From a virus (Duplodnaviria > Caudoviricetes): a DNA stretch of 59,649 bases. The stretch covers positions 1-59,649 of the IMG/VR virus record IMGVR_UViG_3300029823_000290. One strand, 5' to 3'. The translations under genes and the position numbers were made by a program. Below the pieces are notes generated by a model. The model made no database searches. It saw only the letters and a program-made list of their open reading frames with translations, and was not told where the DNA came from. Shown piece by piece: positions 26,385 to 59,649 of this stretch (positions are counted from its first letter, which is position 1; every line of letters begins with the position of its first letter).

Positions 26385-26386
26385 TT

Positions 26387-36809: not shown

Positions 36810-36811
36810 AT

Positions 36812-39483: not shown

Positions 39484-39511
39484 TTTTTCCTCCTTATAAA
39501 AAATAGAGCCG

Positions 39512-41546: not shown

Positions 41547-41549
41547 CTC

Positions 41550-43725: not shown

Positions 43726-43855
43726 ATGCCCACCTCCTTTTTGACATTTTTTGACCTTCATAGGCCCCTATTTGAAACCTGCGGACGCGCGCGTTGTGGG
43801 CCGACTCCGGTCTTTAGCAGAGCGGCAGAAAATTTTCTGACCCGCCCTACCCCTA

Positions 43856-44248: not shown

Positions 44249-44401
44249 TATTTTTCTCCTTTATTTCCTTCTCCCAGTTATCTATAAGGGCTATTGTGTT
44301 GAACTCGACAATTCTGTTATAAATCCCATAGTATATAGCTTTGTGAAGTTTTAATATATATCACTTACACATTTTATAAATATGGGTAACTCATTTATTT
44401 T

Positions 44402-44950: not shown

Positions 44951-44977
44951 ACTCTCACCGCCCAGCTGCTATGAATA

Positions 44978-45005
44978 GCGAAAAGCCCCGGTTTCCCGAG
45001 GCTTT
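44978..45005 (-). terminator. Terminator in the late leader
   Basis: AAAGCCTCGGGAAACCGGGGCTTTT. Confidence 0.6.
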
Positions 45006-45081
45006 AAATTACGTTACACCGGGGCCCGCACTCTGCAGCGTGCGAACCCCTTTCCTTATTGTGTTCCATTTCTATGATACT

Positions 45082-45145
45082 ATTATAACAGGATTTTTGG
45101 GGTTTAGAGTCCGTTAATAGTCCGGTTTTAGTCCGAAAATAGTCC
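45082..45145 (-). promoter_or_regulatory. Late promoter with four GGACT repeats at an 11-bp period
   Basis: AGTCC at 45108, 45119, 45130 and 45141; extended -10 TGTTATAAT; no consensus -35. Confidence 0.7.
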
Positions 45146-45154
45146 AGTACAATT

Positions 45155-45706
45155 TTAAGGCGTTGCCCATGGAATACCTTCGAATAGTTTTCCCTTCCAT
45201 TCCTCAGGCTGTTCTGCCTCAGGTACCGGAATTCCCAACAACTTTGCGGTTTTTAAAACTACCCGTTTTTGTAGCTCGAAGTAAGAGCTGCGGGACATTT
45301 GCAGTTTGGTGTAGACCTCTTTTTCCCGCTTTTCTAACTCATACCGCAGTTGGTAAATCATTTTTTCTTCAGGGTTAAAAGTTTTAATTGCGTTTGAAAT
45401 CATTATGAACATTATTTCTTTACGCTCGATCCGCTCTTCCATGCTTTCTTCTTTAATTGTTACCGATTCCAACGGGGAGGAAACTGAATTATGCTGTATT
45501 ACCACTGGCTTAAACTGTTGTGTTATGCTCTGGCCGACCAGTTGGTCCATGCGGAGCTGCAGTTTAAGATTGTCGATCTCCATGGGTAAATTCTTATAGT
45601 ATTTCAGCAACCGCTCTGTTTTTTTATACCACCCGGGTTTTTTATAAGGTTTTGTCGGTTCCTTTATTTCATTGACCTGACCGGTTTGTCTATAAATTCT
45701 ACTCAC
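45155..45706 (-). CDS. ArpU/RinA-family late transcriptional activator
   Basis: IYQLRY...LQMSRSSYFELQKR HTH; lies before the packaging module; GTG start after AGGAG. Confidence 0.8.
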   Translation of the reverse strand: MSRIYRQTGQVNEIKEPTKPYKKPGWYKKTERLLKYYKNLPMEIDNLKLQLRMDQLVGQSITQQFKPVVIQHNSVSSPLESVTIKEESMEERIERKEIMFIMISNAIKTFNPEEKMIYQLRYELEKREKEVYTKLQMSRSSYFELQKRVVLKTAKLLGIPVPEAEQPEEWKGKLFEGIPWATP

Positions 45707-45777
45707 CTGGTCTCCTCCCCTCCTAAATTTATTAACTGTCGTTTTCTGCTCCTGGATCCGACTAATAATTAGCAATC

Positions 45778-46176
45778 TCAATGTTTGTTATCTTCATAGG
45801 GCTTTCCAAAAATCAACGCCATGGCCTTTTCCGGAGTATCGGCTTCTGACCATGCTTGAACCTCTGGGTCTTGGTGCATTGCTTTTCCTGCGTCCATCCA
45901 CCGAGCAAATTGGCAGTTGGCGCATACTAAAAACTCTGGTATGCTGGGATATTTCTTAACATGCTCTTTAATTTTTATACATTGCTGACACCTATCGTCT
46001 ACTATCTGATTATTCCTGGCCAAATTCTCGCAGAGAAGAAATAGGGCATTGAAAGTTATGGTGCCTACTTCTAAGTTGGCGGCATTTTTTTGCTGCAGCT
46101 TTTCCAAAGATTTCACTTGGCGCCGAAGGTTTATTACTTCATCACACTCATCGCAATCTCGCATCAAAAAACCCAT
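45778..46176 (-). CDS. Hypothetical Cys-rich protein
   Basis: GGGAG RBS; co-oriented in the early operon. Confidence 0.55.
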   Translation of the reverse strand: MGFLMRDCDECDEVINLRRQVKSLEKLQQKNAANLEVGTITFNALFLLCENLARNNQIVDDRCQQCIKIKEHVKKYPSIPEFLVCANCQFARWMDAGKAMHQDPEVQAWSEADTPEKAMALIFGKPYEDNKH

Positions 46177-46303
46177 TTATTTTTCACTCCCTTGGGTAAA
46201 TTCGAAATTAATAAGCCAGCATGATTCCATTATTTTATCTATCCTCCTTCTCCGCAGCAGGATGCCCTTTGCATCCTGTTTGATAGTCGAAGTTGTCACA
46301 ATC

Positions 46304-46570
46304 TTAAAATAGAGTTAATTGTCTTGGTTTTGGCGTTCCTGAGAAATAAATATAATCAGTGTTGTATCGCATAAAAGCTTCCTTTTCCGGTTCCCATCTA
46401 ATTCCGTTTATGATGCAGCGGTGACCATCACGTGGATCAATATAATTGATTGTAAAACGGTCTTTATTAATGCCATCATAATAATCGCTGACATATACAA
46501 CTTCCCCGCCAGTGCCATAACTTGTATCAACATTACAGCCAGTCAAATCTTTGATATCTTCGGGTTTCAT
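46304..46570 (-). CDS. Hypothetical protein ending in QLTLF
   Basis: Operon context; start uncertain. Confidence 0.55.
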   Translation of the reverse strand: MKPEDIKDLTGCNVDTSYGTGGEVVYVSDYYDGINKDRFTINYIDPRDGHRCIINGIRWEPEKEAFMRYNTDYIYFSGTPKPRQLTLF

Positions 46571-46622
46571 GCATCCATCATCTCTCATTCCCCCTGGGCC
46601 GTTTAATTATTGAATTGCGTAA

Positions 46623-47357
46623 CTACTGGTGTATCTGCCCATCTCTCAAAGGGACGATTACCACAACTCCATTCGAACCTTCAAATACCAGTGGGTACAG
46701 TATTTCCCCGGGTTTGTAATAAAGTCTAATGTCGCCTTGAAGTATGCTTAATGCTAATTGCAACTTAGCATCGTCTAATGCAACGATCGAATCATCTAAC
46801 TGTAGAAGCGATTGATTAAAACCATAGCTTTGATCTGAGTCTTTGCTTTTAAACGTCCTTGTAACTTGAGATAGTGGCGTGGTTTTGAGCCTTGCTACAT
46901 CTAAAATTGGTTCATAATCTGGGAAACTTCCATGATTTATTCCCGCTTGCCCGTCTTGCAGTGTGATTACTACACGGCCCTTTAGACATTCCGGGATGCA
47001 ATCGTACTTGATTTTGCATAACAGAAATGTATTTGAAGCTACCATATATCCATCTTGGGTCATTAACACTCCCATTAAAACTGGCCTAAATTCGTGTTGT
47101 ACAGCAGCACATTTTTTTGCATTATCAAAGGCTTGTTTAAACTCATCAGATATATCCAATTCAATGTACTCATGGGTGGCTTCCTTATTGGCTTTTTCAA
47201 TTTCAGCCTTTTCTCGCTTGGCTATTTCTTCCGGGGTATCTTCTTCCCAGAAGTCATAATAATCATGTTCGTAATGTTCACATTCATCACAACAAGAACT
47301 CCCATTATTTGCGCAATAATCACAGTTCCCATAATGTTTGTTTTTATATCTATTCAC
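46623..47357 (-). CDS. Protein with an N-terminal Cys cluster and a beta-sliding-clamp-like region
   Basis: RPVLMGV, MVASNTFLL, GSFPDYEPIL and VVIVPLR resemble DnaN motifs. Confidence 0.55.
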   Translation of the reverse strand: MNRYKNKHYGNCDYCANNGSSCCDECEHYEHDYYDFWEEDTPEEIAKREKAEIEKANKEATHEYIELDISDEFKQAFDNAKKCAAVQHEFRPVLMGVLMTQDGYMVASNTFLLCKIKYDCIPECLKGRVVITLQDGQAGINHGSFPDYEPILDVARLKTTPLSQVTRTFKSKDSDQSYGFNQSLLQLDDSIVALDDAKLQLALSILQGDIRLYYKPGEILYPLVFEGSNGVVVIVPLRDGQIHQ

Positions 47358-47401
47358 CTTAACTTACCTCCTCTGCTTCGCATCTATAACAGACTGCGTA
47401 A

Positions 47402-47608
47402 TTATCCTAAAATGTCATAAAACGCTTCTTTGCACTCACCGCAGTAATGCAAATTCTGGTTTTCGTCCACTTCATTTACCTGAGATGGTCTAAATTCTTC
47501 TTTCCCATATGGATATAACCGTCGCTGCTGGGGAGGTAAAACCTCAATGGCCTCTATATCGTCCTCATTTATGACTTTCTTACAACGGTTACAAATTATT
47601 GCTTTCAT
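47402..47608 (-). CDS. Small Zn-finger hypothetical protein
   Basis: CNRCKK...HYCGEC; AGGAG RBS. Confidence 0.65.
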   Translation of the reverse strand: MKAIICNRCKKVINEDDIEAIEVLPPQQRRLYPYGKEEFRPSQVNEVDENQNLHYCGECKEAFYDILG

Positions 47609-47649
47609 TGATAGCTCTCCTTTCCTTCACAGTTTTAACATACTGCGCA

Positions 47650-47889
47650 CTATCCAGTCTCTATCAAATCCATGTCCTTACACTTGCCGGCGTCTTTTAT
47701 GCAGCAATTTGGAGGATAACACTTTCTGGCCCGGGTACCGCCATAATAATCAAAATGCTTGCAAACGACACGCCGCTGCTTTAAAGGGTCAGTGCATCCG
47801 CGTTCTTTTATATCATCCCAGTTTAGCGATATCCCTTTCAGCCTGCATCCCGCAATTCCACTTTGTTTAGGTGGTATCATTACCGGCAT
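47650..47889 (-). CDS. Small Cys-rich hypothetical protein
   Basis: GAGGTG RBS; abuts the DnaC-like stop. Confidence 0.5.
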   Translation of the reverse strand: MPVMIPPKQSGIAGCRLKGISLNWDDIKERGCTDPLKQRRVVCKHFDYYGGTRARKCYPPNCCIKDAGKCKDMDLIETG

Positions 47890-48786
47890 TTAAACCACCT
47901 CTATCCTTCGGTCGGGCCCTCCCAGCTTCCACAGCTGGCAGTGCTTTATTAACCGGCTGTAGATGGCCGGGCCGTGATTTGCTCCGAACCGTATTTCTAT
48001 TTCCGGCAGGGTAAAGTTTGATGCTATCACCAGCGGTAGGCCGGCGCGGATCCGGTAATCGATTATGAAATAAAACTTCTCTCCAGCCCATTCCGGATCT
48101 CTTAATCGTTCTTTACCAAAATCATCTAAAAGCAAGATATCAGCGTTTTTGTATTTATATAATACTTGGTCTTCTGATCGCTTGGCTCCATCCTGGTATG
48201 TTGCTCTGATTTCCTGCAGCAGTTCAACGGTTTGTGCATATATTGGATTCCGGCCGGCGCTCGCAAAACGGTTTACCAAACAATGCAGCACATAGCTTTT
48301 ACCAGTTCCATTTCCGCCGGGATTCTGTTTAGTCCGATCACCATAGATATAAATACCGGCCGGTTTCCGGGTATCCCAGGTTTGCAGAAACTTATATAAC
48401 TGCCCATTATGCTTGTCTAAAATAGCTGTATTAAATTTATGATTGACTTCGTTCCCGATTAAACCGCTTTGTTTAATTGCTTCACGGTATGCCTTTTCTT
48501 TCAGACATTGCCGGGTATCGTACTGGATTCTATGTAATTCCGGTTCCCCTAATATCTCTGTGAACTGGCCGCCATTCTCTCTGCATTTCGTGCATTTGTC
48601 AGGTGGATTGGCCTCGGAATAAATAACATATAACCGGGGTTCTGATTTAAATGGACAATCATTTGGATTATGTACCGCTATCTCTTGTAACGGACTGGCA
48701 TTGAGCCGTTCTAAGTGCAATACGCTCATCTGCCGCACTCTCTCGCCGTATTGATCCCATGTTTCCTGTTGACGCCTGGCGTTCAT
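47890..48786 (-). CDS. DnaC/IstB-like helicase loader ATPase
   Basis: GNGTGKS, LLLDDFGKE, IIDYR, ASN and YSRL motifs. Confidence 0.88.
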   Translation of the reverse strand: MNARRQQETWDQYGERVRQMSVLHLERLNASPLQEIAVHNPNDCPFKSEPRLYVIYSEANPPDKCTKCRENGGQFTEILGEPELHRIQYDTRQCLKEKAYREAIKQSGLIGNEVNHKFNTAILDKHNGQLYKFLQTWDTRKPAGIYIYGDRTKQNPGGNGTGKSYVLHCLVNRFASAGRNPIYAQTVELLQEIRATYQDGAKRSEDQVLYKYKNADILLLDDFGKERLRDPEWAGEKFYFIIDYRIRAGLPLVIASNFTLPEIEIRFGANHGPAIYSRLIKHCQLWKLGGPDRRIEVV

Positions 48787-49648
48787 TGCCCTTCCCCCTT
48801 TCCTGCTGGAGTAATTCGTCATCGAGGTAATCTAAAAACGGTTTATTAGGACCTAAAAAAGTTTTAGCCTGTTTAATAAATTTCTCAGCTGTACTTAACT
48901 GGTTACATTCGGCAGCATATCTTTCAGCTGCTATCAACATATCCCGGGGCAGGTGTCCTTCTTTTTTACGGGTTAGCCAGCACTTAAACGCCGCTTGTTT
49001 TTCTTTGTGCCGGGGGTAAGCTTTCCAAAATATCTCAAATTCTTCGGGATATTCGGTACCTTTGCCAGTCTCTGCATCTGCTTCAGACTGCGCTCCCTCA
49101 TCTCCAGGAAACAAGTTCTCAGCCGGGGTTCCCGAACATTCACTTGTGCTGTCAGGCACGCAAGAATTATTGGTTCCAGTTTGGGTTCCGGTTATAGTTC
49201 CGGTTATAGTTCCGGTTATACCCGGACACGTCCCGGACTTGTCCCGGACAACATAGTGGCTTTTGCGTCTACTGTCCCCCTGAACCCACTCAATCCATGG
49301 CGGTAGTGGTATACTGGCTTTAGAAGGAGGTGTTGGTTTATCTAACGTTTGATGTTTATGAAAATTGGATATAAATAGATAATCTTTATCTGCTACTTGA
49401 TAAGGCTCTAACTTTTTTTCGCTAACCAACTCATTTCTCCATTGGCTGATAATGTCGAGAGTGACATCATTATCAACAGGTGATGGAAATAGACTTATTT
49501 TAAAAGCAAATACTGAATCTTCTATGCACCCGCTATCATCAGCCAACTGGACAAGGCCAAGATAAAACCACCGTTTTTCACGCGGCCACTGAAGTATATC
49601 AGGATCCGTCCAAAAAGTTGCTTTTATCTGTCGATTATGTAACCTCAT
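48668..49648 (-). CDS. Phage replication initiator protein
   Basis: RQIKATFW...ADDSG...NFHKHQ N-domain; FEIFWKAYPR..K..A and AKTFL C-domain. Confidence 0.85.
   Translation of the reverse strand: MRLHNRQIKATFWTDPDILQWPREKRWFYLGLVQLADDSGCIEDSVFAFKISLFPSPVDNDVTLDIISQWRNELVSEKKLEPYQVADKDYLFISNFHKHQTLDKPTPPSKASIPLPPWIEWVQGDSRRKSHYVVRDKSGTCPGITGTITGTITGTQTGTNNSCVPDSTSECSGTPAENLFPGDEGAQSEADAETGKGTEYPEEFEIFWKAYPRHKEKQAAFKCWLTRKKEGHLPRDMLIAAERYAAECNQLSTAEKFIKQAKTFLGPNKPFLDYLDDELLQQERGKGNERQASTGNMGSIRRESAADERIALRTAQCQSVTRDSGT
49173..49249. repeat. Iteron-like repeats (probable phage ori)
   Basis: GTTCCGGTTATA x3 (49185-49220) plus a degenerate copy, then CCCGGAC x3 at an 11-bp period. Confidence 0.7.
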
Positions 49649-49683
49649 GAGTTACCCCCTACTATCAATAAGTGCCGCCGCTA

Positions 49684-49890
49684 CTATGCAACCTCATAAC
49701 CGCGCTGCTTTAGTTCTTTTTGTTCCGCTGCTTTCCACCCCAGGCAGCCCAGCATTTCTTTTGGCCATCTGGTTTTACCATCAAGTCTGCAATGAGGCCT
49801 TATTGTTCTTTTAGTGATTAATATTTCTTCCAGTGTGCTCTCGGGAATCCAAAACCTGCAGGTACCGCAACAGCGCTCTATACCTTCCAT
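49684..49890 (-). CDS. Small Cys-containing hypothetical protein
   Basis: AAGGAGG RBS; CCGTCRFW motif. Confidence 0.6.
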   Translation of the reverse strand: MEGIERCCGTCRFWIPESTLEEILITKRTIRPHCRLDGKTRWPKEMLGCLGWKAAEQKELKQRGYEVA

Positions 49891-49976
49891 TGAATTGCCT
49901 CCTTCCCCCCCCCCCGAAAAAGATCGGGCTGTTCCGCATCTTGCCAACCTGTATGAGTTAGTATCATAACCTTCAT
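49878..49976 (-). CDS. 32-aa micro-ORF spanning a G11 tract
   Basis: GGGGGTG RBS; MKVMILTHTGWQDAEQPDLFRGGGKEAIQWKV. Confidence 0.35.
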   Translation of the reverse strand: MKVMILTHTGWQDAEQPDLFRGGGKEAIQWKV

Positions 49977-49988
49977 GGCATTCACCCC

Positions 49989-50906
49989 CTAAAGCCTGGC
50001 TGACATCTGACTAATCAGCTCAAGTGTGGCATGCTTGTATTTTTCTCCGGTCCCAGGATCCGCCTGCTCGATTTCGGCCAGAGATGTTAGGAGCTGCCTG
50101 AAATCGGCAACCAACACTTTGAAACAATCGGAATACTTTTCAATCTGCCGATTCTGTTTCAGCTGCCGGAGTTCGGCTAGTTCGTTTTCTATCTCTTCCG
50201 GAAGCTTGTCAACAACTGCCGCTGCCTGAACATCAACAGGCTTGCTAATTAACTGTTTATTCAGATCATCTATCTCTTCGTTTGCATGAAGCAACTGGGC
50301 GTCGGCCTCTTCAAGTTCAGCCTTCAGTTTTTCTATTTTATCCTCATTGCCGGCCGTTTTGGCCTCGGCAAGAGATGTCTGCAATTTATCAATCTCCTGC
50401 TTAGCTTGTTGCTGTGCCTTTTTAAGTTCCTCAGCTGCACGATTGGCATCCTGTAACTTTTTGTCAGATTCTTCTTTGGCTTTGATGGCCTGATCGCGCT
50501 CTTTAATGGCTTGTTGGAGCTCCCGGGTGGACATATTGTCTATGTCATGCTCCTCTATAAACTTTTCGCGCTCATCGGCCGGAACTCCCAAGAGTGCAAC
50601 GGCCTGAGTATAAGATAAACTTCCAATCGCTTGGGATTTTGCTTCAGAGCCAAACAAGGACAATTGGGTGGCTCCATACTCCTCAAAAATCCTCATTAAA
50701 TTGTTGGCGGTCGATTGGGAATAATCGACTGAGGTTTCAAGCCATTTTCCCCATTCGCCATGGGGCAGCATTTCTTTGGCTTCCACCAGCCGGCGGCCGA
50801 TTTCTATACTGTTGCAAAGCACCATTATCCGCGTTTGACTTTTAATGCTGTTTATCTCCGTGGCAATCATATCCGGAGTCCGACTTATCGCAACGGCGGT
50901 ACTCAT
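49989..50906 (-). CDS. DUF3102 domain protein
   Basis: IEIGRRLVEAKEMLPHGEWGKWL, STANNLM and MSTRELQ motifs. Confidence 0.88.
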   Translation of the reverse strand: MSTAVAISRTPDMIATEINSIKSQTRIMVLCNSIEIGRRLVEAKEMLPHGEWGKWLETSVDYSQSTANNLMRIFEEYGATQLSLFGSEAKSQAIGSLSYTQAVALLGVPADEREKFIEEHDIDNMSTRELQQAIKERDQAIKAKEESDKKLQDANRAAEELKKAQQQAKQEIDKLQTSLAEAKTAGNEDKIEKLKAELEEADAQLLHANEEIDDLNKQLISKPVDVQAAAVVDKLPEEIENELAELRQLKQNRQIEKYSDCFKVLVADFRQLLTSLAEIEQADPGTGEKYKHATLELISQMSARL

Positions 50907-50930
50907 AAATTTAATCTCCCCTTCCCACGG

Positions 50931-52520
50931 TTAGGCCGGTACCCTAATTCTTACTGCAACCTTTTGAGTATCAGTCCTTAACTTCGCGTTCTTGAAGTCT
51001 TCAATAAATTTAGTTACTTTTTTATCTGGCTGGCAGTTATTTAACCCTCGCACCTGTATTACTGTATCCTTCACTATTTCCACGGTATAATAAGGCTTAT
51101 CCGGATTTTCCTTCTTGCGAATGAACATGATCGTGGTTTTACCGGCAGCATATCTATCAGCATAGGTCCCTACGCAGTGGTTCAGTGATCGTCCTTCGTT
51201 AATTAATTCCTTGGTGTTGGCAGCTGCCCGGATTATTAATCCATACTTTGTAAATCCATACTTTGTGTTTATGTGCCCACTCCTGGCCTTTACTTTTTCA
51301 TCCAGCAGTTTATTACCATGAATTTTTACCTGCTTGATTGTATTTTGGTGAGCTTTATATAAATCCCGGGGAAAAAGTACATTTTTCTTGGTAATATCCA
51401 TCTGCAGCTTTTGACAGTCGGCATAATAATCCAGCCAGTATCTAGCAACATCACTTTGATTGTAAAAAACATGTCGATAATGGCCATTCTTTTGGGCTTT
51501 CTCCTTCTCTCGTTGCTGTTTACTGAGTTTAAGCTGTTGGTTTATATATTTATCAGCCTGCCTAAGAGAAGTATGTTTGAGAATCATTCTAAAATTTTTA
51601 GTGAAATACAGTTTCTTTGCTATCTCAGTGATCTCATCAAAATTCAGGTTGGAACCGTCTTTTTGTGATATCTGATATAAACATAGAGTCAAGGGGTCAA
51701 GGTCAATATTTGCCTTCTTAATTTCTTTCAGGTCTTTTTTAGTTAGCTTAAGGACCTTAAGTAAAGTGTTTCCCCGCCAGTTAATTGCTCCATATGTGGC
51801 ATACCCGTTAAGTTTGTCCCGGATAAGTCCCTGAAAACCGAGCTTAGTAAGGTATTCAATGCAGGGATACTTTGAATATAGATTGAAAAATAATTCCGTA
51901 GGAAAATTAAAATACTCTTCGATGGTGCTGTACTGAAATGGAGTTCCTTTTATAGCTGTCTTAATGCTTTCATAAGAAGTACGATGAAATCTTATTCTTT
52001 GGACATAAGTCTGATTAAACATGGAGAATATTCCGGCACGCTTTTGCCAGTCTTCCCATGTTTTCATTGTTTTTTCCGCAGAATAATATCCATACCTGGT
52101 AAACATGATGCTATTACCCATTTCAAATATATAACGTGCTGTTTCTAAATACTGGGTTTTCACCCGCCTGTAATCTCCGCTATAATCTCGTACTGCCAAA
52201 ATCCCTCTGGCTACTATTGCTTGCGGATTTTTAGCTGATTTTTCGTAGTATAAAAAATAGGCATCGTCCACCAAGTGTTTTCTTCCCCGGCCGCTGGACT
52301 TGACTGTACATAAACTTTTGCAAAATGGGCATTCAAATTTATCATTATGGATAAGCTTGGTTTTGAATTCATTGTGGCAGTTGGTGCAGTATCCGTATTG
52401 CTGCTTGCCTTCGCGCCAGGTGAATATATATCGACTCAATTTGAATACCGTTTCTGTTGCATACTGCTCTATTTCTTTGCTTATATCCGGGATAAAATGT
52501 TCCATGTATTCCTCGTACAT
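50931..52520 (-). CDS. PcfJ-like protein
   Basis: DYYADC, FPRDLYKAH, ELINEGRSLNHCVGTY and QVRGLNN motifs. Confidence 0.88.
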   Translation of the reverse strand: MYEEYMEHFIPDISKEIEQYATETVFKLSRYIFTWREGKQQYGYCTNCHNEFKTKLIHNDKFECPFCKSLCTVKSSGRGRKHLVDDAYFLYYEKSAKNPQAIVARGILAVRDYSGDYRRVKTQYLETARYIFEMGNSIMFTRYGYYSAEKTMKTWEDWQKRAGIFSMFNQTYVQRIRFHRTSYESIKTAIKGTPFQYSTIEEYFNFPTELFFNLYSKYPCIEYLTKLGFQGLIRDKLNGYATYGAINWRGNTLLKVLKLTKKDLKEIKKANIDLDPLTLCLYQISQKDGSNLNFDEITEIAKKLYFTKNFRMILKHTSLRQADKYINQQLKLSKQQREKEKAQKNGHYRHVFYNQSDVARYWLDYYADCQKLQMDITKKNVLFPRDLYKAHQNTIKQVKIHGNKLLDEKVKARSGHINTKYGFTKYGLIIRAAANTKELINEGRSLNHCVGTYADRYAAGKTTIMFIRKKENPDKPYYTVEIVKDTVIQVRGLNNCQPDKKVTKFIEDFKNAKLRTDTQKVAVRIRVPA

Positions 52521-52536
52521 ATTTAATCACCAGCCT

Positions 52537-52899
52537 TTACAGAAGATCTTCCAACCGGATATCAAAATCCACGATGCTAGGGCCCTCCGCCTTTTGTGCC
52601 GGTGGAGTTAGCTCAACAGATGGCGCTATTTTTGCATGTTCAATGCCGAAGTATTTTAAGACTATTTCGAACCCTTCCTGATCCGTGAGGACCGCACAGC
52701 TTCCGACTTTTTTCTTTTCAGCTGCCTTCCGCATTGCGTCTAAACTTTTAGCGATTGACTTATCATCTGCCAATATTTTTTCAGCTGATTCCGGATTGGA
52801 CTGCAGGTGCTGCAGCAGGAATCCACCCACCACCTGGACATATGAATTACTATCCTTCTCCATTTCCGCCTTAAGCTTCTTTATTGCCTGATTAAGCAT
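52537..52899 (-). CDS. PcfK-like protein
   Basis: KSIAKSL..MRKAAEKK...LTDQEGFEIVLKYFG; upstream of PcfJ. Confidence 0.75.
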   Translation of the reverse strand: MLNQAIKKLKAEMEKDSNSYVQVVGGFLLQHLQSNPESAEKILADDKSIAKSLDAMRKAAEKKKVGSCAVLTDQEGFEIVLKYFGIEHAKIAPSVELTPPAQKAEGPSIVDFDIRLEDLL

Positions 52900-53398
52900 A
52901 TTGCACCTCCTCAGGTGGTTGCCAGTTCCAGAGCCGCTGATGACCCTTGACCTCGATAGGTGTAACCAGCTGGTGCACGTTCTCCAGCTGCCAAGCGTAC
53001 CGGCCCGGTGTCCAGTTACCAAATAGTATTTCGTCACCCTCAACATTGCCCGTTTTACCGCTAGCCTCTATACATCTAGCATCTCCGACCTTTGGATATA
53101 CGGTGTAATATCTGTCGACTATCTTCCAACACTCGACCAGTTCTGCTATAGCAATAACGCATCCCCGCGGCAAAGAGCAAAGAGCGTCAACGGTTCTTAT
53201 GTCGGCTGGGAAACCCAGCACTTCCGCGGATCGTATTGCAACATCAACAGGCGGATAAGCAACAAGGTGCGGTTTTTTCGTCGCTGCGTGAATAGCTATT
53301 GGGCCTCGGTACGATGTTGCCCAGCTCCGGGTTTCGTATTTTTTCGCGCCGATAGCAACCAGTGAAGCCCAAGGCTGCCAAAGAGTAATTGCTTTCAT
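52892..53398 (-). CDS. ASCH domain protein
   Basis: KAITLWQPWASL..GAKKYETRSW..YRGPIAIHA and GHQRLW motifs. Confidence 0.9.
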   Translation of the reverse strand: MKAITLWQPWASLVAIGAKKYETRSWATSYRGPIAIHAATKKPHLVAYPPVDVAIRSAEVLGFPADIRTVDALCSLPRGCVIAIAELVECWKIVDRYYTVYPKVGDARCIEASGKTGNVEGDEILFGNWTPGRYAWQLENVHQLVTPIEVKGHQRLWNWQPPEEVQYA

Positions 53399-53401
53399 TA
53401 T

Positions 53402-53752
53402 TTAAGCCGCCCCCTTCCGCTGCGCCTGATATTCAACCTCCGTGGCCAGCTCGAAGTCAACCACCCAGACCAACTGATGTGGATCCCAGCGGCCGTTAAT
53501 CTTTTTCCATATTTTTCGGTACCCGGGGATATGAGGATATCCTTCCCGGCACGCATCTTGGTCAGTAATCTGCCCCAAAAATTCCTGGCGCAGGCCTGTA
53601 ATCAGCAGATATGCAAATGGTTCTGATCCCCTATGGCCGGTTTTGGCCTGATATATTTTTCCAACCTTCCAGCGTTTCTTCCCAGTCCGCCGGGTCTGGG
53701 TTTTCTTTCTCCGGAGAATCATCTGAGCGTGTTCGGGTTTAAACAACATCAC
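53402..53752 (-). CDS. ASCH domain protein
   Basis: FKPEH..ILRRKKTQTRR, ITDQDACREG and WVVDFE motifs. Confidence 0.85.
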   Translation of the reverse strand: MMLFKPEHAQMILRRKKTQTRRTGKKRWKVGKIYQAKTGHRGSEPFAYLLITGLRQEFLGQITDQDACREGYPHIPGYRKIWKKINGRWDPHQLVWVVDFELATEVEYQAQRKGAA

Positions 53753-53779
53753 TTCGCGGTCACCTCCAGTTCCCTTACA

Positions 53780-54085
53780 TCACTTTTCAAAATCATATGG
53801 CAGTCTAATAGTATAACCATGCAATCTGCCTTCTTTTTCTTCTCCTTGAGGAAGATACCTTTCCTTAGTAATAACAACTTCTTTTACGATCCATGTAGCA
53901 ATACTGATATTGCCGAGATATAATTCAACGAATATGTGTGGTTCATCGCTTCCGATAAACTTAAATATCACAATCTTAGATATAACGTTTTCACGAAAAA
54001 TGGCACCGTTCATATACACTCCTAAGCCTTTTCCAACATTCTGAACATGTGGTATATCGCCAATGCTTTCGATAGTGTATTTCAT
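53780..54085 (-). CDS. Hypothetical protein
   Basis: GAGGAGG RBS; AT-rich. Confidence 0.6.
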   Translation of the reverse strand: MKYTIESIGDIPHVQNVGKGLGVYMNGAIFRENVISKIVIFKFIGSDEPHIFVELYLGNISIATWIVKEVVITKERYLPQGEEKEGRLHGYTIRLPYDFEK

Positions 54086-54141
54086 TAAGATATCCTCCTC
54101 ACTTTCTGACGTCTCGGGTTGTTACGAAAACAAACTATTCC

Positions 54142-54630
54142 CTACTCGCCTATAAATAGTCCCGTCACAGCCAAAAACAGCAATACCTGCACCGTCGGCC
54201 TGTTTAGAAAGACTCGTACCTTGTTCCATATTCTCAAGTGAAAAGGTCTGTTTAATTGCTTAAGAGCTGCGCTGGTTACGTCTATATAGGCAATTTTGCC
54301 CTGCTTTTTCAACTGGCTATATTCCCAATCGATCAGATGTTGAGCCTGTCCCGAATAATAACTATCAAAGCCTACTGCTCTTCTCGTCAAATGATATTCC
54401 TCCCCTCGAATGGAGCCTGGCCGGGGGGATTCGAACCCCCCGCTTGCCTCTCCCTGTGCCAGGGAGTGGTCGGACCTACCACCGGCATAGCTCCCCAGCT
54501 TTTCAAACAATTGATCACGTTCTTCCTGGAGATCTTTAATTATGTTCAACAAATTGTCTATACTTCTCTCGATCTGGCGATCTTCATTGAGGTTATTCAC
54601 CACGTCACCAACTTTATGTTTTGCCCCCAC
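54142..54630 (-). CDS. Hypothetical ORF with a C-terminal TM helix; may be two small genes joined through a tRNA-like element
   Basis: Internal GGAGG + TTG restart near 54390; start uncertain. Confidence 0.45.
   Translation of the reverse strand: MGAKHKVGDVVNNLNEDRQIERSIDNLLNIIKDLQEERDQLFEKLGSYAGGRSDHSLAQGEASGGFESPRPGSIRGEEYHLTRRAVGFDSYYSGQAQHLIDWEYSQLKKQGKIAYIDVTSAALKQLNRPFHLRIWNKVRVFLNRPTVQVLLFLAVTGLFIGE
54411..54494 (-). tRNA. Non-canonical tRNA-like element (Cys-like: GCA anticodon, U discriminator, CCA)
   Basis: T arm GGGGGG-TTCGAAT-CCCCCC; anticodon arm CTCCC-TGGCACA-GGGAG; D arm TGGT/ACCA; imperfect acceptor stem; 3' TCCA. Confidence 0.5.
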
Positions 54631-54667
54631 CTGCCCAAGCTGGGGTCAGATGGGGGCGGATGTTAAT

Positions 54668-54913
54668 TTACTGGTTATCGGTCTCAGCAGCTGCTGCCAC
54701 CATGGCATTTATACATCTTTCGCAATGGTGTAGATGTCCGCACCAAGGGCAGATCAAATAATCATACTTTTCTCTGAGCGGTGCCATTTCCGCATAGCCG
54801 CGATCTACGCAGATTGCGGTCGCTTCCGTTATTGCATCGGTTATGGCGTTATCAGGCATGTTGTAATCCGCCCGCAACCGGTTTTTAAATTCTTGTCTAT
54901 AGTCTTTATCCAT
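54668..54913 (-). CDS. Hypothetical Zn-finger protein
   Basis: CPWCGH..HCERC; AGGGG RBS. Confidence 0.6.
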   Translation of the reverse strand: MDKDYRQEFKNRLRADYNMPDNAITDAITEATAICVDRGYAEMAPLREKYDYLICPWCGHLHHCERCINAMVAAAAETDNQ

Positions 54914-54934
54914 ACTCTCGTCCCCTTTCGTGCC

Positions 54935-55017
54935 TTGCCCCTTGTCCGGGGCTGTGGTATACTTTGTGTTAAGAAGTTTTTATCTGGCCGCTTGATTAGC
55001 GGTCTTTTTCTTTTTTA
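54935..55017 (+). ncRNA. Putative short antisense RNA (promoter plus terminator)
   Basis: TTGCCC-17 bp-TATACT with extended TG, then the GGCCGC/GCGGTC hairpin and a T tract. Confidence 0.5.
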
Positions 55018-55502
55018 TCTAAGAGATAATTGATTAATCCCAACCGATAAGTATCATCCAACTCGCAAATCAGGTTCAAATCGGCTCGAATGCGATCACA
55101 TGTTTCTCTACCTGCTTTTCGAACCATTTCTAATTCTTGGCTACTTAAATCCTCCGGTTTTTGTTTATCAAGGATAATGAACGGAATTTGTTTCAGCGCT
55201 GCGTCTGCTTCCTGGTCCTCTTTCTCAACTCTGCGAATCAGCGTTTGTGGATGCCTGTCCCCTGATATGAAACTAAAAAGCTTGTACCCGGTGGCTTCCA
55301 TTGCTACTGCCAGTCCGGCCAGAATGCTCACGGAAGCAATTTTTTCTCTGGCATCCTGGGGTATTTTACGTTTTCCATTCATCGCTAAATAGTAAGCATC
55401 CACGGAATAATTAGTTTCGGCTGCAAGTGCTTTTGTGGGTGTGCCGGAACGGAATAATGCTTCTTTTAACATTTCTCCTGCATGGTTTTCAGCTACTGAC
55501 AT
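54996..55502 (-). CDS. Phage regulatory protein with an N-terminal HTH (CII-like position)
   Basis: TKALAAETNYSVDAYYLAMNGKRKIP; AGGAGG RBS. Confidence 0.7.
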   Translation of the reverse strand: MSVAENHAGEMLKEALFRSGTPTKALAAETNYSVDAYYLAMNGKRKIPQDAREKIASVSILAGLAVAMEATGYKLFSFISGDRHPQTLIRRVEKEDQEADAALKQIPFIILDKQKPEDLSSQELEMVRKAGRETCDRIRADLNLICELDDTYRLGLINYLLDKKEKDR

Positions 55503-55592
55503 CTTATCTTCACCTCCTCTCTGTCATAATTAACCAGTTTGATACGACAAGATTTGCTGGTATGTTATAGAAAAGATCTTTATTAAACTGAA

Positions 55593-55779
55593 TCAGGCTA
55601 TATTATGTTCTTTGCGATAGTTATCGCAGAACTCAATGAAATGAGGGTATTTGCTTAGTTTTTCGGCGTAGAGCTTGCCTAAAAAGGCAACCTCTGGACG
55701 GGGGTCATCGGGTAGGGGTTCAATTCGCTCTTCCAATAACTCACCTTTGAGTGTTTTACGTATTGTTACGCGGGCCATC
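55593..55779 (-). CDS. Hypothetical protein
   Basis: AGGAGG RBS; follows cro; start approximate. Confidence 0.5.
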
Positions 55780-55861
55780 ACTAACATAAGATCCCTCCTG
55801 ATTATCAGCATTAGGTCTATCTCCTTAGGTTTAGATTTCTACAGCAGAGGTAATACTGGGG

Positions 55862-56095
55862 TTAACCATCCGTACCGGTATACTGTTTTGGCAACATATC
55901 GTGTCCTTTTTCTTCAAAAAAAATTTCTTCAATTGATACCCCATAGTAATCGGCGATTTTTTGGGCAAGCTTAAGAGAAGGATTACGTTTCCCAGATTCA
56001 ATGGCACCAAGCATTTGTCTAGTAATACCTAAATCGTCGGCTACAGAAGTTTTTGTTTTATTATCTCGTAGTTCTATCATTTTCTTATTTATCAA
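55862..56095 (-). CDS. Cro-like Xre HTH regulator
   Basis: VADDLGITRQMLGAIESGKRNPSL; TTG start after AAGGAGG. Confidence 0.9.
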   Translation of the reverse strand: MINKKMIELRDNKTKTSVADDLGITRQMLGAIESGKRNPSLKLAQKIADYYGVSIEEIFFEEKGHDMLPKQYTGTDG

Positions 56096-56113
56096 TTTAT
56101 TCGCCTCCTTAAT

Positions 56114-56225
56114 GGACACTGTTTGTTTCCGTTATTAAAAGTATATGGAAACATATAGTGTCTGTCAAGTATTTTGTAACTTTTTGTGTCCAAGGTAGAC
56201 CTAGAAACTTATTGTTTCCTATAAT
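56114..56225. promoter_or_regulatory. Immunity switch: divergent promoters and four 17-bp operators
   Basis: Leftward TTGACA-17-TATACT (56168-56140); rightward TAGACC-18-TATAAT; operators resembling GGA(A/C)AC-N5-GT(G/T)TCC at 56114, 56147, 56175 and 56203. Confidence 0.8.
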
Positions 56226-56246
56226 TAGCGATAGGAGGTATTTTAA

Positions 56247-56930
56247 ATGTTTAATCAACGTCTACGTGAACTAAGAAAACAAAAAGGTATCAGCCAATAT
56301 GATCTTGCTGATCAGCTCGGCTTGTCACGTGGGCAAATAGCCAATTACGAGCAAGGAACAAGAGAACCAGACTACGATACCCTCCATAGATTTGCTGAAT
56401 ATTTTGATGTTACGGACGACTATTTGCTAGGTACCGAAGATAAAATACAAAGTAATTTTCGCAATCTACTGAAGAAATCTATTAGTATCTTGAAAGATGA
56501 ACGTGGGATGGGTACTCCAGAAGGAATAGTAGCAGTTTTACTTAAAACACTGGAACTATATGCAGTTACAAACGGAGTACCACTTAGTATGTTGCCGAAT
56601 GTTGAATTATTAGAATCCGAAAAAAAAGCTTTAATAAAAGAGCTTAATAATATCGCAGAAGCGGAGGATAATGATCCAGTTAAAGAAATGGCTGAACAAA
56701 TAAGAGAACTGTCTCCGCAGGGCCAAGATGCTATTAAATCAATGCTGGAAGCTTTAAAAACTAAAGATGATAAGACGACTATCGACGAGACTAGGAAACA
56801 CTGGGAACCACTTGCGGCCCATCGGGATGATAACCCTATGGATGATTTACCCGAAGACGCTATTCGTAGTATGGAAGCTGCCCAAAAAGCTTATTTAGAC
56901 GAATTCAAGAAAAAAAATGACCTGCTGTAA
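56247..56930 (+). CDS. CI/ImmR-like repressor
   Basis: RLRELRKQKGISQYDLADQLGLSRGQIANYEQGTREP; C-terminal LAAH motif. Confidence 0.9.
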   Translation: MFNQRLRELRKQKGISQYDLADQLGLSRGQIANYEQGTREPDYDTLHRFAEYFDVTDDYLLGTEDKIQSNFRNLLKKSISILKDERGMGTPEGIVAVLLKTLELYAVTNGVPLSMLPNVELLESEKKALIKELNNIAEAEDNDPVKEMAEQIRELSPQGQDAIKSMLEALKTKDDKTTIDETRKHWEPLAAHRDDNPMDDLPEDAIRSMEAAQKAYLDEFKKKNDLL

Positions 56931-56998
56931 AAAGCAGGTCGTTTTCATATTTACCCTTATCGACTTATTATATGTATATTCGACAAGAGGTGCTATTT

Positions 56999-57430
56999 AT
57001 GGAAGCAATGCTTGTAATCGCTGAAAAAGAGGGTATTAATATAAGATGGTGGAATTTTAATCCGCCTATTAGAGGAGCATATTGGGCACCTCCAGAAGTG
57101 CCACCGGTAATATTTTTAGATCATTCGCTTAATCATAATACACCCTTACTAAGATGTGTATTTGCAGAAGAACTAGGGCACCACTTTACTTTGGACAGAC
57201 ATTGCTTGTGCCAGCCATATTTCAATTACCGTGACAGGCTTGCTACATCAAAGGCCGAATATAAAGCACTTCGATGGGCTGCTAAGTATCTGATGCCAAA
57301 ACGGCAGATCTACGCAGCGATTAAAAGTGGCTATCAAGAAAGGTGGACTCTCGCAGATTACTTTAATGTAACAGAAGAGATGGTAACGTATCGGATTAAA
57401 TTGCCGGACATACAAACGATTACATGTTAA
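56999..57430 (+). CDS. ImmA/IrrE-family metallopeptidase (anti-repressor)
   Basis: AEELGHH, E.KA.RWAA..LMP and LADYFNVTEEMV..R motifs. Confidence 0.85.
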   Translation: MEAMLVIAEKEGINIRWWNFNPPIRGAYWAPPEVPPVIFLDHSLNHNTPLLRCVFAEELGHHFTLDRHCLCQPYFNYRDRLATSKAEYKALRWAAKYLMPKRQIYAAIKSGYQERWTLADYFNVTEEMVTYRIKLPDIQTITC

Positions 57431-57466
57431 TAATAAATTTAATGGGGAAGATGGGAGGAATAATAA

Positions 57467-58024
57467 ATGAAATCATGCCGGTCAATAGTAATGGTATTTT
57501 TAGCTTTGCTGATGATGAGCACAGTCCCAGGCTGTGGTGAGGAAAACGCAAACATCAATAGAGAGAAGCAGAACGCTGCAGTCGAGGTCAATAATCCTAA
57601 GGAGAATGCAACGAGTATTATTTTTAATGTGCTTAAGGTGGCAAATAAAACAGAATCTGAAGTCTCATCCCTTTTGGGTCAACCTACTTCAACTGAAGAT
57701 GGGAAATGGAGATACTCCGGTACACAGGAATGGATACCTAATTGTCCTACGAATACATATAAGGATGGAACCGAAATTAAATTCATCGATAGCAAAGCTG
57801 CCAGAATTACTATTATTCCGAGTACTCCAGTAAAATACCAAGAAGATCCATCTATTTTAAGTCAACTTGGCATTAATCCCATACCAGAAGATATTGATTG
57901 GGATAACGGCCCAAACTCTATTGTTTATGGTAACATACCTGACTTATATGAAATATCAGTTTTTACCAAAGATAACAATACCGTGGATTATATATATATA
58001 ATAACCGACGAATTATATAAATAG
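57467..58024 (+). CDS. Putative lipoprotein (possible superinfection exclusion)
   Basis: Signal peptide with lipobox VPG-C; located in the lysogeny operon. Confidence 0.7.
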   Translation: MKSCRSIVMVFLALLMMSTVPGCGEENANINREKQNAAVEVNNPKENATSIIFNVLKVANKTESEVSSLLGQPTSTEDGKWRYSGTQEWIPNCPTNTYKDGTEIKFIDSKAARITIIPSTPVKYQEDPSILSQLGINPIPEDIDWDNGPNSIVYGNIPDLYEISVFTKDNNTVDYIYIITDELYK

Positions 58025-58058
58025 AGACATAAAACAAAACCAATGGAGGCGATTCCCT

Positions 58059-59645
58059 TTGAAGAAGGCAGTAGCCTACGCCCGTTACAGCAGTGACAAT
58101 CAGAGCCCGGAAAGTATTGATGAACAGCTTTATGATATCCGAGATTGGGCTGCTAAAAATGACTGTGAGATTTTAAAAATATATACTGACGAAGCTGAAA
58201 CTGGTACCAGTGATGAGAATAGGGATGATTTTTTGAATATGATATCTGAGTCATCCGACATGGAATACGATTATGTTCTGGTGCATAAAACTAATCGTTT
58301 CGCACGAAATAAATGGGATGCCGCTATATATAAAAAGATGCTCCGTGAAAATGATAAAAAGGTAATTTATGTTACTCAGCCCATGCTGAATGAGGAAACC
58401 CCTGAAGCTATGATGCTTGAAACATTTTTTGAGGGTATGGATCAGTATTATTCGCTCGATCTGGCCAGAGAGGTCATGAAGGGGCATAAAAAGAATGCCC
58501 GGGCTTGTAAACATAATGGTGGATTGCCTGCTCTTGGCTTTGATGTGGATAAGGAGACTCAAACATATATTCTCAATGAACGGGAAGCCCATGCAGTGCA
58601 CAAAATATTTGAAATGTATGATGCCGGGTTAAGTTATGATGCAATTGTTAAGGATCTAAATTCTGCCGGTTATAAAACTAAAACCGGTAATCTGTTTTCT
58701 AAGAACTCAATCCATGACATCCTCCGGAATGAAAAATATCTTGGAATATACACTTATAACCGCCGGCCACACAAGGTTAAAGGTATGCGAAATAATCGCA
58801 AAGAAAAACCTGCTGAACAGGTAATTAGAATACCCGGTGGTATGCCTCAAATTATTGAGCAAAAGTTATGGGATCGAGTTCAGGCAAAAATAAATGGTAG
58901 GAAAAAAGGCACCGGTGAAGGAGAACGGAGCAGGTTAAAAGCAACTCGGCCCTATCTCCTTTCAGGTAAGATTTTCTGTGGTTTATGCGGTGCGGCAATG
59001 GTAGGAACATCAAAAAACTATTCTGAGAAAAAAATCAGATATGATTATTATATGTGCGGTAAACGTGACCGCCAGCATTCATGTAAATTAAAAATGATTC
59101 GTAAGGATATAATTGAGCGTCAAGTATTAGAGGAATTAGAGAATCGTTATCTAAACCCCAAAGTATTTCCTCAATTAGCAAAGGAGTTGCAGAAAGGTTT
59201 TAAAAACCTCGGTGGAGAATCAAATAAAGAAATTGTATACCTTAAAGCAGAACTGGCTAAAGTCCAGGTCAAGATTAATAATATGCTGGAGTTAATTGAG
59301 GATGGGGCTGCATCAAAAGAATTGGCAGCCCGGTTGGATCAGCGGGAATCAGAAAAAATTATATTAGTAAACCGTCTACAAGAAGCTGAGCACAAAACAA
59401 AAGCCAGCTCATTCACGTATGAAATGATACTGGCCTATTTATATAAGGAGTATGAAGCTCTTAAGGCAGATGATTCACTTACTACCAAAAGGCTACTTGA
59501 CCGTTACTTGATCAAGGTTTTTATATATGAAGAAGAGTTTGAAGCTACCTTCAAACTCTTTCTGTATACCACTGGTGGAGGCGGGGGGAGTCGAACCCCC
59601 GTCCGAAAGAAAGACCAGCCAGGTGTCTCCGAGCGCAGTCCGTGA
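58059..59645 (+). CDS. Large serine integrase (prophage-form C-terminus reads through att into antisense ssrA)
   Basis: AYARYSSDNQ, RFARN, LSGKIFCGLCG, YYMC..C and coiled-coil motifs. Confidence 0.95.
   Translation: MKKAVAYARYSSDNQSPESIDEQLYDIRDWAAKNDCEILKIYTDEAETGTSDENRDDFLNMISESSDMEYDYVLVHKTNRFARNKWDAAIYKKMLRENDKKVIYVTQPMLNEETPEAMMLETFFEGMDQYYSLDLAREVMKGHKKNARACKHNGGLPALGFDVDKETQTYILNEREAHAVHKIFEMYDAGLSYDAIVKDLNSAGYKTKTGNLFSKNSIHDILRNEKYLGIYTYNRRPHKVKGMRNNRKEKPAEQVIRIPGGMPQIIEQKLWDRVQAKINGRKKGTGEGERSRLKATRPYLLSGKIFCGLCGAAMVGTSKNYSEKKIRYDYYMCGKRDRQHSCKLKMIRKDIIERQVLEELENRYLNPKVFPQLAKELQKGFKNLGGESNKEIVYLKAELAKVQVKINNMLELIEDGAASKELAARLDQRESEKIILVNRLQEAEHKTKASSFTYEMILAYLYKEYEALKADDSLTTKRLLDRYLIKVFIYEEEFEATFKLFLYTTGGGGGSRTPVRKKDQPGVSERSP
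59533..59560 (-). terminator. 12-bp perfect hairpin within the integrase gene, just downstream of the ssrA 3' end
   Basis: AAGAGTTTGAAG-CTAC-CTTCAAACTCTT. Confidence 0.6.
59572..59586. repeat. Right attachment junction
   Basis: CTGGTGGAGGCGGGG matches 24407-24421. Confidence 0.9.
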
Positions 59646-59649
59646 TTTG
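59573..59649 (-). ncRNA. ssrA: tmRNA 3' end (partial)
   Basis: Minus strand ...GGACGGGGGTTCGACTCCCCCCGCCTCCACCA; the upstream sequence lacks a tRNA anticodon arm and fits the tmRNA 3' region. Confidence 0.85.

Follow-up and report, generated by a model that had tools for sequence, protein, structure and literature searches.

The right end of the IMG/VR virus record presented above is the attR end of a temperate siphovirus-like phage that lies integrated in the 3' end of the transfer-messenger RNA (tmRNA) gene, ssrA, of a Syntrophomonas-type host. The record was analysed over its whole length of 59,649 bp and is called the window in the following. Integration into the ssrA 3' end is carried out by the phage's own large serine integrase, whose gene, int, is convergent with the tmRNA gene, and the phage attachment site, attP, falls inside the int reading frame. 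Two forms of the integrase that differ only at the C-terminus exist in nature and are interconverted by the enzyme's own reaction, one with a selected, phage-encoded tail and a prophage one whose tail is dictated by the host. We somewhat favour the view that the former is the native enzyme and that this exchange has consequences for the function of the enzyme. The prophage, its boundaries and the host gene are arranged as follows.

24407..59586: prophage of about 35.2 kb, siphovirus-like and temperate, bounded by two exact 15-bp repeats (attL core copy to attR core copy)
24407..24421, plus strand: attL core copy, 15 bp, exact repeat; place of the attP junction seen in a contig of sequencing run X1
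59572..59586, plus strand: attR core copy, 15 bp, common to attP and attB, spanning the last 14 nt of the tmRNA gene and 1 nt more
59573..59649, minus strand: 3' part of the host tmRNA gene (ssrA), its 5' side cut by the record end, recognised by Rfam RF00023

The direct repeat that forms the core is CTGGTGGAGGCGGGG. A 14-mer search allowing at most two mismatches finds three occurrences in the window as against 0.28 expected from shuffles, with exact copies only at 24407-24421 and 59572-59586. The match of the right end to RF00023 covers model positions 296-374 and reaches 60 bits (gathering score 47) with an E-value of 3.3e-21. ARAGORN detects no tmRNA in the window because the gene is truncated at the record end; complete tmRNA genes stand at the same place in three relatives (loci L085, L089 and L090). 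The closest relatives have metagenome-assembled genomes (MAGs) of Syntrophomonas and Syntrophomonadaceae as their hosts.

The gene that meets the tmRNA gene at this core, and the part of it that stems from the host, are the following.

58059..59645, plus strand: int, large serine integrase in its prophage form, 528 aa, TTG start, ending in ...YTTGGGGGSRTPVRKKDQPGVSERSP and a stop
59587..59645, plus strand: host-derived end of the prophage-form int, in which the Gly codon begun at G59586 is completed and SRTPVRKKDQPGVSERSP and a stop follow from antisense tmRNA

By its domain set, catalytic motif and fold, the int product is a large serine recombinase (LSR). Pfam places a Resolvase domain at residues 4-148 (E 3.8e-21), a Recombinase domain at 175-281 and Zn_ribbon_recom at 300-360, and the PHROG integrase family phrog_95 is matched with an E-value of 2.7e-109. 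The catalytic residues Y7, A8, R9, S11, D13, N14 and Q15 as well as the zinc-ribbon cysteines C307, C310, C333 and C342 are invariant in an alignment of 18 relatives. An AlphaFold2 (AF2) model of a close relative has long helices at about 364-446, as expected for the coiled coil of LSRs. Compared with solved integrases, this model reaches Z scores of 20.1 for SPbeta (whole chain), 17.0 for Bxb1, 13.7 for A118/LI and 13.6 for phiC31. Furthermore, the int family matches the SPbeta integrase in a profile comparison with an E-value of 1.4e-31. Up to the core, the int open reading frame (ORF) is free of stop codons, and it runs on for 59 nt of antisense tmRNA behind it.

The sequence that int loses on integration is found at the other end of the prophage, and the parts of attP are distributed over both ends.

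24421..24525, plus strand: phage-form C-terminal tail of int, AYPVVCRNIIKAAKELPIPFISALVTYPPDQFSY and a stop, detached from int in the prophage and readable directly in the window
24427..24442, plus strand: P' arm of attP, CCAGTAGTATGCAGAA, encoding tail residues P-V-V-C-R, recognised by arm symmetry
59560..59575, plus strand: P arm of attP, TTCTGTATACCACTGG, within int codons ...F L Y T T G, complementary to 24427-24442 at 14 of 16 positions
59583..59584, plus strand: predicted crossover dinucleotide GG, in the middle of the 16-nt spacer that separates the arms and inside the identity block

When 59586 is joined to 24422, the int frame stays open for 34 codons more and stops at 24523-24525, which gives a gene of 1632 nt encoding 543 aa. 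On this gene end the attP site of about 48 bp is laid out such that the P arm encodes ...FLYTTG, the 15-bp core the Gly-rich linker, and the P' arm with the sequence beyond it the last 34 residues. Scored about a fixed centre, the arms of the rebuilt site are complementary at 14/16 positions. Of the 59,589 window centres, one attains 13 and none 14, and the unjoined attR and attL give 6/16 and 4/16. The symmetry of the arms would place the crossover at the GG at 59583-59584, that is within the int coding sequence, and integration alters the int 3' end. With its imperfect inverted 16-bp arms, central GG and 15-bp identity with attB, the site resembles the short attP sites, likewise with imperfect inverted arms and a central dinucleotide, of SPbeta SprA, Bxb1, A118/LI and phiC31, enzymes that share the domain set and fold of the window integrase. 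The outer P' motif GTATGCAGAA explains the conserved V-C-R in the tails of relatives. On inspection by eye, the attB half-sites have no obvious motif in common with the attP arms.

The joint reconstructed in this way occurs naturally, for which there are three independent lines of evidence. Contig L005 from a fermentation metagenome carries an int whose product is 80% identical to that of the window and which runs through the same core into the phage-form tail; from there to the contig end it agrees with window 24422-24549 at 125/128 nt, and 32/34 residues of the tail are alike. Database proteins P0003, P0004, P0006 and P0008, encoded on contigs of up to 42 kb, end in tails of the phage-form type, and P0002 and P0011 end in antisense-tmRNA tails. 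The left junction was checked in Logan contigs from four public sequencing runs. In a contig of run X1, the 15 letters before 24407 are those of window 59557-59571, which are unique in the window, and thus form the attP junction. In a contig of run X5, which belongs to another study, 24169-24421 is followed directly by the 16 letters of window 59587-59602, and this is the empty attB. In run X1, contig depth amounts to 48.1 for the host flank and to 58-61 for the phage, a hint at extra phage copies that was not used as evidence, since contig depth is not copy number. In a viral contig set, a single-protein scan returned one relative only, the truncated L003, and a degenerate attP-junction pattern gave four matches, all unrelated.

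Much of this had been foreseen in the original prediction, which was made from the letters of the window alone. It had held that int, without a stop before the core, is completed to 528 aa by antisense tmRNA, that an in silico joint of 59586 and 24422 gives 543 aa ending at 24525, that the attP arms agree at 14/16 around GG, and that two isoforms result from an attP inside int. The ORF at 58059..59645 together with the RF00023 match, the rebuilt frame with its joint in L005 and run X1, a symmetry score matched by 0/59,589 window centres, and the natural occurrence of both forms, differing only in the C-terminus, bear this out, the crossover itself being placed by symmetry. The statement that no gene for a recombination directionality factor (RDF) is obvious also stands, in that PHROGs named no RDF or excisionase among the 20 ORFs scanned.

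The P' side at 24422-24549, which includes the 3' end of a tyrosine recombinase gene described below, is 98% identical to L005 although the integrases are 80% identical at the protein level. By this comparison, attP is a sharp mosaic boundary between the window phage and L005.

The layout recurs throughout the related integrases. Among the 14 closest loci, seven enter antisense tmRNA at the same core, one has the attP form, and two contigs stop exactly at the core; the remainder are cut before the C-terminus (two) or carry another tail (two). ARAGORN finds tRNA or tmRNA genes in 30 of 159 related loci. Five of these (L014, L081, L112, L134 and L151) were dropped, the RNA gene being remote from the end of int or lying on the int strand. 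In the other 25 the RNA gene is convergent with int and near its end, and in 23/25 the int ORF overlaps the antisense of the RNA 3' end, by 22-160 nt. The genes overlapped are those for tmRNA and for tRNA-Gln, Ala, Pro, Leu, Arg, Glu, Asn and Val. The best 120 protein homologues were assigned to tail classes by simple regular expressions, with approximate counts of 50 RNA-antisense tails, 39 other tails (mostly recognisable attP-type families), 14 proteins whose sequence ends at the core together with the contig, and 17 without the Gly-rich core motif. At the same fixed centre, 9/10 attP-form loci show an arm symmetry of 10-14/16, each with its own arm sequence, and the P and P' arms covary between lineages (TTCTG[T/C]ATAC with GTAT[G/A]CAGAA; TTTGCTTAC with GTAAGCAAA). 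A stop before the core was found in none of the attP-form relatives examined. To judge from these loci, an attP within int is the standard layout among the relatives recovered. In this respect the original prediction, which had treated the case as a single curiosity, fell short, as the 23/25 loci with an RNA gene at the int end demonstrate.

A second recombinase gene adjoins the attachment site on the attL side.

24519..25568, minus strand: tyrosine recombinase gene, Pfam Phage_integrase (E 1.4e-35) with SAM-like N-terminal domains, converging on the phage-form int, whose stop it overlaps by 7 nt

It could be put forward that this enzyme integrates the phage into ssrA and that the serine recombinase frame across the joint is a coincidence. 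Tyrosine integrases are typically found at tRNA and tmRNA sites, and for serine integrases the usual statement is that coding regions are the more common targets (PMC6109161). We consider this explanation very improbable. The arms are symmetric, 16 bp long and 16 nt apart, a geometry of the LSR type, and they covary across lineages, the identity block is merely 15 bp, and in every tmRNA-sited relative checked the LSR gene enters the RNA gene at the same core position. Furthermore, a Phage_integrase domain is present in 0/10 ORFs examined downstream of int in seven other attP-form loci; these ORFs have amidase (endolysin-type) domains, methyltransferase, redoxin or nothing known. Because of the LSR-like site geometry, the meeting of LSR and RNA gene at the core, the arm covariation and the lack of a Phage_integrase domain in those downstream ORFs of relatives, the tyrosine recombinase is probably an accessory gene and not the integrase for the ssrA site.

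The phage-form tail bears signs of selection of its own. Its first 8-9 residues are encoded by the P' arm, and conservation extends past the arm. For a comparison with the window, P' sides were recovered as DNA from attL sites in three MAGs. Tail residues 10-16 read I-K-[A/L]-A-K-[E/Q/D]-[L/F] in all sequences except L247, which has R at the first position, and the tail codons vary synonymously (AAA/AAG; CTA/TTA/CTG; GCT/GCC/GCA; GAT/GAC; TTG/CTT; TTC/TTT). Nei-Gojobori counts were pooled over the 10 pairs of five lineages and expressed as proportions of synonymous (pS) and non-synonymous (pN) differences. In the int frame, codons 9-16, which lie beyond the P' arm, have a pS of 0.80, a pN of 0.31 and a pN/pS of 0.38, and the other two frames give a pN/pS of 1.18 and 1.61. 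Other tail families behave similarly: Y-R is kept with TAT/TAC and AGG/CGG codons in L018, L180 and L188, and P-L-L-T-I...N-L-Y is kept between L020 and L176, which on a reading by eye differ by about seven synonymous and four non-synonymous changes over 15 codons. These substitution patterns indicate that the phage-form tail beyond the P' arm is under purifying selection at the protein level. A survey of related integrases for conserved attP-encoded tails had been proposed in the original prediction; in the small sample compared, a pN/pS of 0.38 past the arm and motifs kept speak for such conservation.

Structure prediction points in the same direction. P0005, the closest natural phage form, was modelled by AF2 from a 47-sequence alignment of attP-form and core-truncated relatives. 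The model has a terminal hairpin (481-487, 490-497), a low-confidence Gly linker and a third strand at 507-514 (YPVVCRNI), and the block 511-520 has a predicted local distance difference test score (pLDDT) of 85. In the AF2 model of the window prophage form, obtained with a 54-sequence alignment, residues 503-528 are coil with a pLDDT of 40-54. Partial order is thus predicted for the phage-form tail and disorder for that of the prophage form. A fold search extends well over model residues 1-503 and hardly into the tail; the alignments with solved LSR chains break off at about residue 498-510, such that the tail strand 507-514 is without counterpart in their resolved parts. Selection on the one tail and the predicted order and disorder of the two make a functional difference between the isoforms plausible.

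The same data can be read as a switch that is real and functionally neutral. The folded integrase ends within about 25 bp of the crossover, the ORF must cross attP to reach the next stop, and the isoforms would be alike, with int and attP forming a compact cassette. This explanation deserves serious weight, short of being probable. Prophage tails change freely from one host RNA gene to another: the overlap is 22-160 nt, and the tail after the Gly run has 22 residues in the window, 8 in L085 and many more in L089 and L090, with several tens of residues at the upper end of the range. That tail length tracks the host tmRNA matches the expectation for unselected read-through, and prophage tails are predicted to be disordered. 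In addition, such prophages are common and apparently mobile, so that the altered enzyme cannot be dead. On the other hand, neutrality does not sit well with the int-frame purifying selection past the P' arm (0.38 as against 1.18 and 1.61), with K[AL]AK[DE][FL], YRH and NLY motifs that survive synonymous changes, with an extra strand confidently predicted in the tail, or with the lack of any stop before the core in the attP-form relatives examined.

Several observations weigh against a functional exchange of tails, or against parts of the evidence for it. Besides excision, phage that was infecting or replicating could account for the attP junction in run X1, and X1 is perhaps the sample behind the window assembly. 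Codons 1-8, which form the P' arm, have a pS of only 0.39 and a pN/pS of 0.69 in the int frame. This is as expected where the DNA itself is constrained, and part of the tail conservation is thus forced at the DNA level. The selection test is small, comprising five sequences and eight codons in pairs that are not independent, with a signal in one direction. The last 18 or so residues, about half of the tail at its far end, show poor conservation and are modelled with low confidence, the predicted strand 507-514 is perhaps partly an echo of arm-imposed conservation in the alignment, and tail length in attP-like relatives ranges from 10 to 39 aa. Finally, residues 590-605 of phiC31 integrase are without density, and an RDF fused to its C-terminus by a 32-residue linker allowed an excisive synaptic complex to form and to be solved (bioRxiv 10.1101/2025.05.02.651858). 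An end that is unresolved and accepts a fused RDF suggests that LSR C-termini tolerate change, which also favours the neutral explanation.

The free or circular phage encodes the 543-aa enzyme, with a tail comprising the predicted third beta-strand (YPVVCRNI) and the K-[A/L]-A-K-[D/E/Q]-[L/F] motif, which selection on the protein maintains. Recombination at the predicted GG shifts the phage tail 35 kb off, to the attL end, and swaps in 22 residues read off antisense tmRNA, predicted to be disordered and of a length that varies by host. If the two forms differ in function, as we are inclined to think, the phage form would be the native, selected one for attP x attB integration. The prophage isoform, altered at its C-terminus, would still support excision together with an RDF and would probably be changed in activity, partner binding or stability, as are the IntP and IntX forms of phage Mx8 treated below. 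Excision would restore the native gene. The two isoforms might then, as the original prediction supposed, differ in stability or directionality and serve as a sensor of the integration state; this interpretation is partly supported, by the place of attP inside int, the natural occurrence of both forms and the selection on the phage-form tail with its predicted partial order.

In the lysogen, the int mRNA would furthermore lose its own 3' end and become complementary to the tmRNA 3' end, which could lower int expression. Such an effect may be the essential one: int transcripts of the lysogen would be antisense to the highly expressed tmRNA, collision or pairing would keep int low, and the phage-form mRNA would end on phage sequence. 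This resembles sib retroregulation in phage lambda, where attP separates int from a 3' regulatory element. It agrees with the geometry, in which the final 73 nt of int in the prophage are complementary to the 3' end of tmRNA, and with the convergent arrangement in 23/25 loci that have an RNA gene at the int 3' end. It leaves the selection on the tail amino acids unexplained, and the phage-form int also converges on a gene, that for the tyrosine recombinase, with an overlap of 7 nt. We regard an RNA-level effect as rather unlikely, and it would be compatible both with a functional exchange of tails and with a neutral one.

Integrase genes affected by their own reaction are known among tyrosine recombinases. 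In SSV1-type archaeal integrases, int is split at attP by integration, and the gene is disrupted rather than given another tail. In lambda, integration alters the int transcript and leaves the coding sequence unchanged. The closest precedent for the window integrase is Myxococcus phage Mx8, in which attP lies within the gene for the tyrosine integrase; integration gives int a new 3' end and hence the enzyme a new C-terminus, the prophage form is active with altered properties, and excision restores the gene (PMC6070905). Unlike Mx8 Int, the window enzyme is an LSR, with another fold and chemistry and with a directionality based on RDF and coiled coil. A further difference from Mx8 is that the replacement tail of the window system comes from the antisense of an RNA gene and that the layout is common to many related integrases. 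The window system would thus appear to work like Mx8 without belonging to that family, as an Mx8-like self-editing int among the serine recombinases, a type common in those LSRs of Bacillota that target tmRNA and tRNA genes.

The original prediction had pointed to mycobacteriophages with attP in the repressor gene. This analogy is valid, with Mx8 as the closer precedent. In integration-dependent immunity (PMC8092301; CyranoPS preprint 10.64898/2026.10.29.762952), attP also lies in a phage gene whose products have different C-termini in the viral and the prophage state. There, however, the edited gene encodes the repressor, the enzyme is a tyrosine integrase, and integration removes an ssrA-like degradation tag of the viral form. 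In the window, the repressor gene (56247-56930) and the ImmA gene (56972-57430) are intact and 2.6 kb from the core. An ssrA-like degradation tag is evident in neither int tail of the window: the phage form ends in ...DQFSY and the prophage form in ...SERSP, some relatives end in -LVKA, -LINA or -SLIA, and there is no consistent tag.

A serine recombinase at an RNA-gene 3' end is also known from the filamentous phage phiRSM, whose attP and attB lie at the tRNA-Ser 3' end in reverse orientation; unlike the window enzyme, it is a small one of the resolvase/invertase type, and in the relative phiRSS0 the gene truncated by integration is that for the regulator ORF13 (PMC3816273). In the literature searched, which included the available parts of the LSR surveys PMC10083194 and PMC12884075 and had supplements and subscription journals outside its scope, no report was found of an LSR with attP in its own ORF.

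The window phage and its relatives thereby extend to serine recombinases a principle of which documented cases were found in a tyrosine integrase (Mx8) and in repressors, namely that integration rewrites a phage protein. They also form a large set of LSRs at tRNA and tmRNA 3' ends, in reverse orientation, counter to the usual statement about coding regions (PMC6109161). A generalisation that is possible, if less likely than not, is that many LSRs of Bacillota at tmRNA and tRNA 3' ends regulate themselves by reversibly editing the gene that encodes them. A C-terminal module, consisting of the third strand and a conserved motif (K[AL]AK[DE][FL] in this lineage, YRH or NLY in others), would be needed for efficient integration, partner binding or protein stability; integration would yield an attenuated or redirected isoform and excision would restore the original.

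LSRs are mined from prophages for genome engineering. In this group, the annotated ORF is a chimera of phage sequence and antisense host RNA gene that is without the selected C-terminal segment, and the native enzyme can be read only across the rebuilt attP. If the self-editing reading is true, integrase sequences taken from prophage annotations, among them those in genome-engineering catalogues, would carry a foreign and possibly impairing C-terminus.

Some related loci depart from the common pattern. In one lineage (L006, L007 and L086), in which int is 72% identical to that of the window, an in-frame stop follows ...KKRYDY at about int codon 328. It lies in the zinc-ribbon region, similarity resumes in frame past it, and either a nonsense-mutated integrase or a recoding event accounts for it. 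In L006, L007 and protein P0016, the int sequence departs from that of the family directly ahead of the Gly-rich core (...HT[HN], followed by VNTMQKRFLIFPH.ECQFLKTKRLLLRRSC), as though the P arm were adjoined by some other element or by a different site. L094 (Desulforamulus aeronauticus) and L173 (an IMG/VR provirus) have the attP-like tail GGGGAYRAISTVPKRT and a stop, yet a tmRNA gene starts 134 nt downstream. By our reading, a 14-nt motif occurs on both sides; its copies are 3 nt out of register, for which reason the fixed-centre symmetry is only 2/16.

Two attL-like sites (L249 and L252) are present in a single MAG contig (contig C18 of G001), with core copies 4.2 kb apart. Their upstream flanks are nearly identical, including a terminator-like hairpin, and their P' arms come from two integrase lineages, which suggests a tandem occupation of ssrA or its remnants. 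Two distant LSR groups, L042-L081 and L231-L246, are about 31-37% identical, and many of their members come from gut metagenomes. They are alike up to ...GLVSST and up to ...APP, respectively, near the C-terminus and then continue in many different tails; to judge from this pattern, in these groups, too, the crossover may be located within the end of the ORF.

The remaining prophage genes were assigned with Pfam and PHROGs. With tail genes likewise inside the prophage, the genome was judged to be that of a complete siphovirus-type phage.

26387-27079: endolysin
38308-39528: capsid
40212-41546: portal
41550-43256: TerL
47890-49648: replication initiator and DnaC-like helicase loader
56247..58024, plus strand: lysogeny module upstream of int
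56247-56930, plus strand: helix-turn-helix repressor of this module
56972-57430, plus strand: ImmA/IrrE-type metalloprotease of this module
57467-58024, plus strand: 185-aa protein of this module that matches no known family, directly upstream of int

Inside the replication-initiator gene (48668-49648), a GTTCCGGTTATA-like unit is present at 49173-49220 in three tandem copies with 12-nt spacing. These units may be origin iterons.

To the left of attL, window 10021-24064 is a defence and mobile island.

10021-11259: ABC-3C CTD11 protein
11439-13112: DUF2326 protein
13116-15566: N6_N4 methylase, with a ResIII helicase at 15567-18074
18105-19850: OLD-type TOPRIM ATPase, with a UvrD helicase at 19657-21651
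21738-24064: IS21 istA/istB pair, ending about 340 bp from the att core

We read the OLD-type TOPRIM ATPase and the UvrD helicase as a Gabija-like pair. Past this island, window 1-9192 holds a series of minus-strand ORFs, including a DUF2800 / PD-(D/E)XK nuclease (7093-8220), and looks like part of another phage or mobile element; the IMG/VR record would on this account hold more than the prophage described above.

In the Logan contigs of runs X1, X2, X5 and X7, branches occur at 24345, at 24406 and at several points at about 26.1-26.6 kb. The 62 bp adjoining the att core (24345-24406) also occur in different genomic surroundings. Between the genes for tyrosine recombinase and endolysin, the sequence (26139-26590) is mosaic among related phages.

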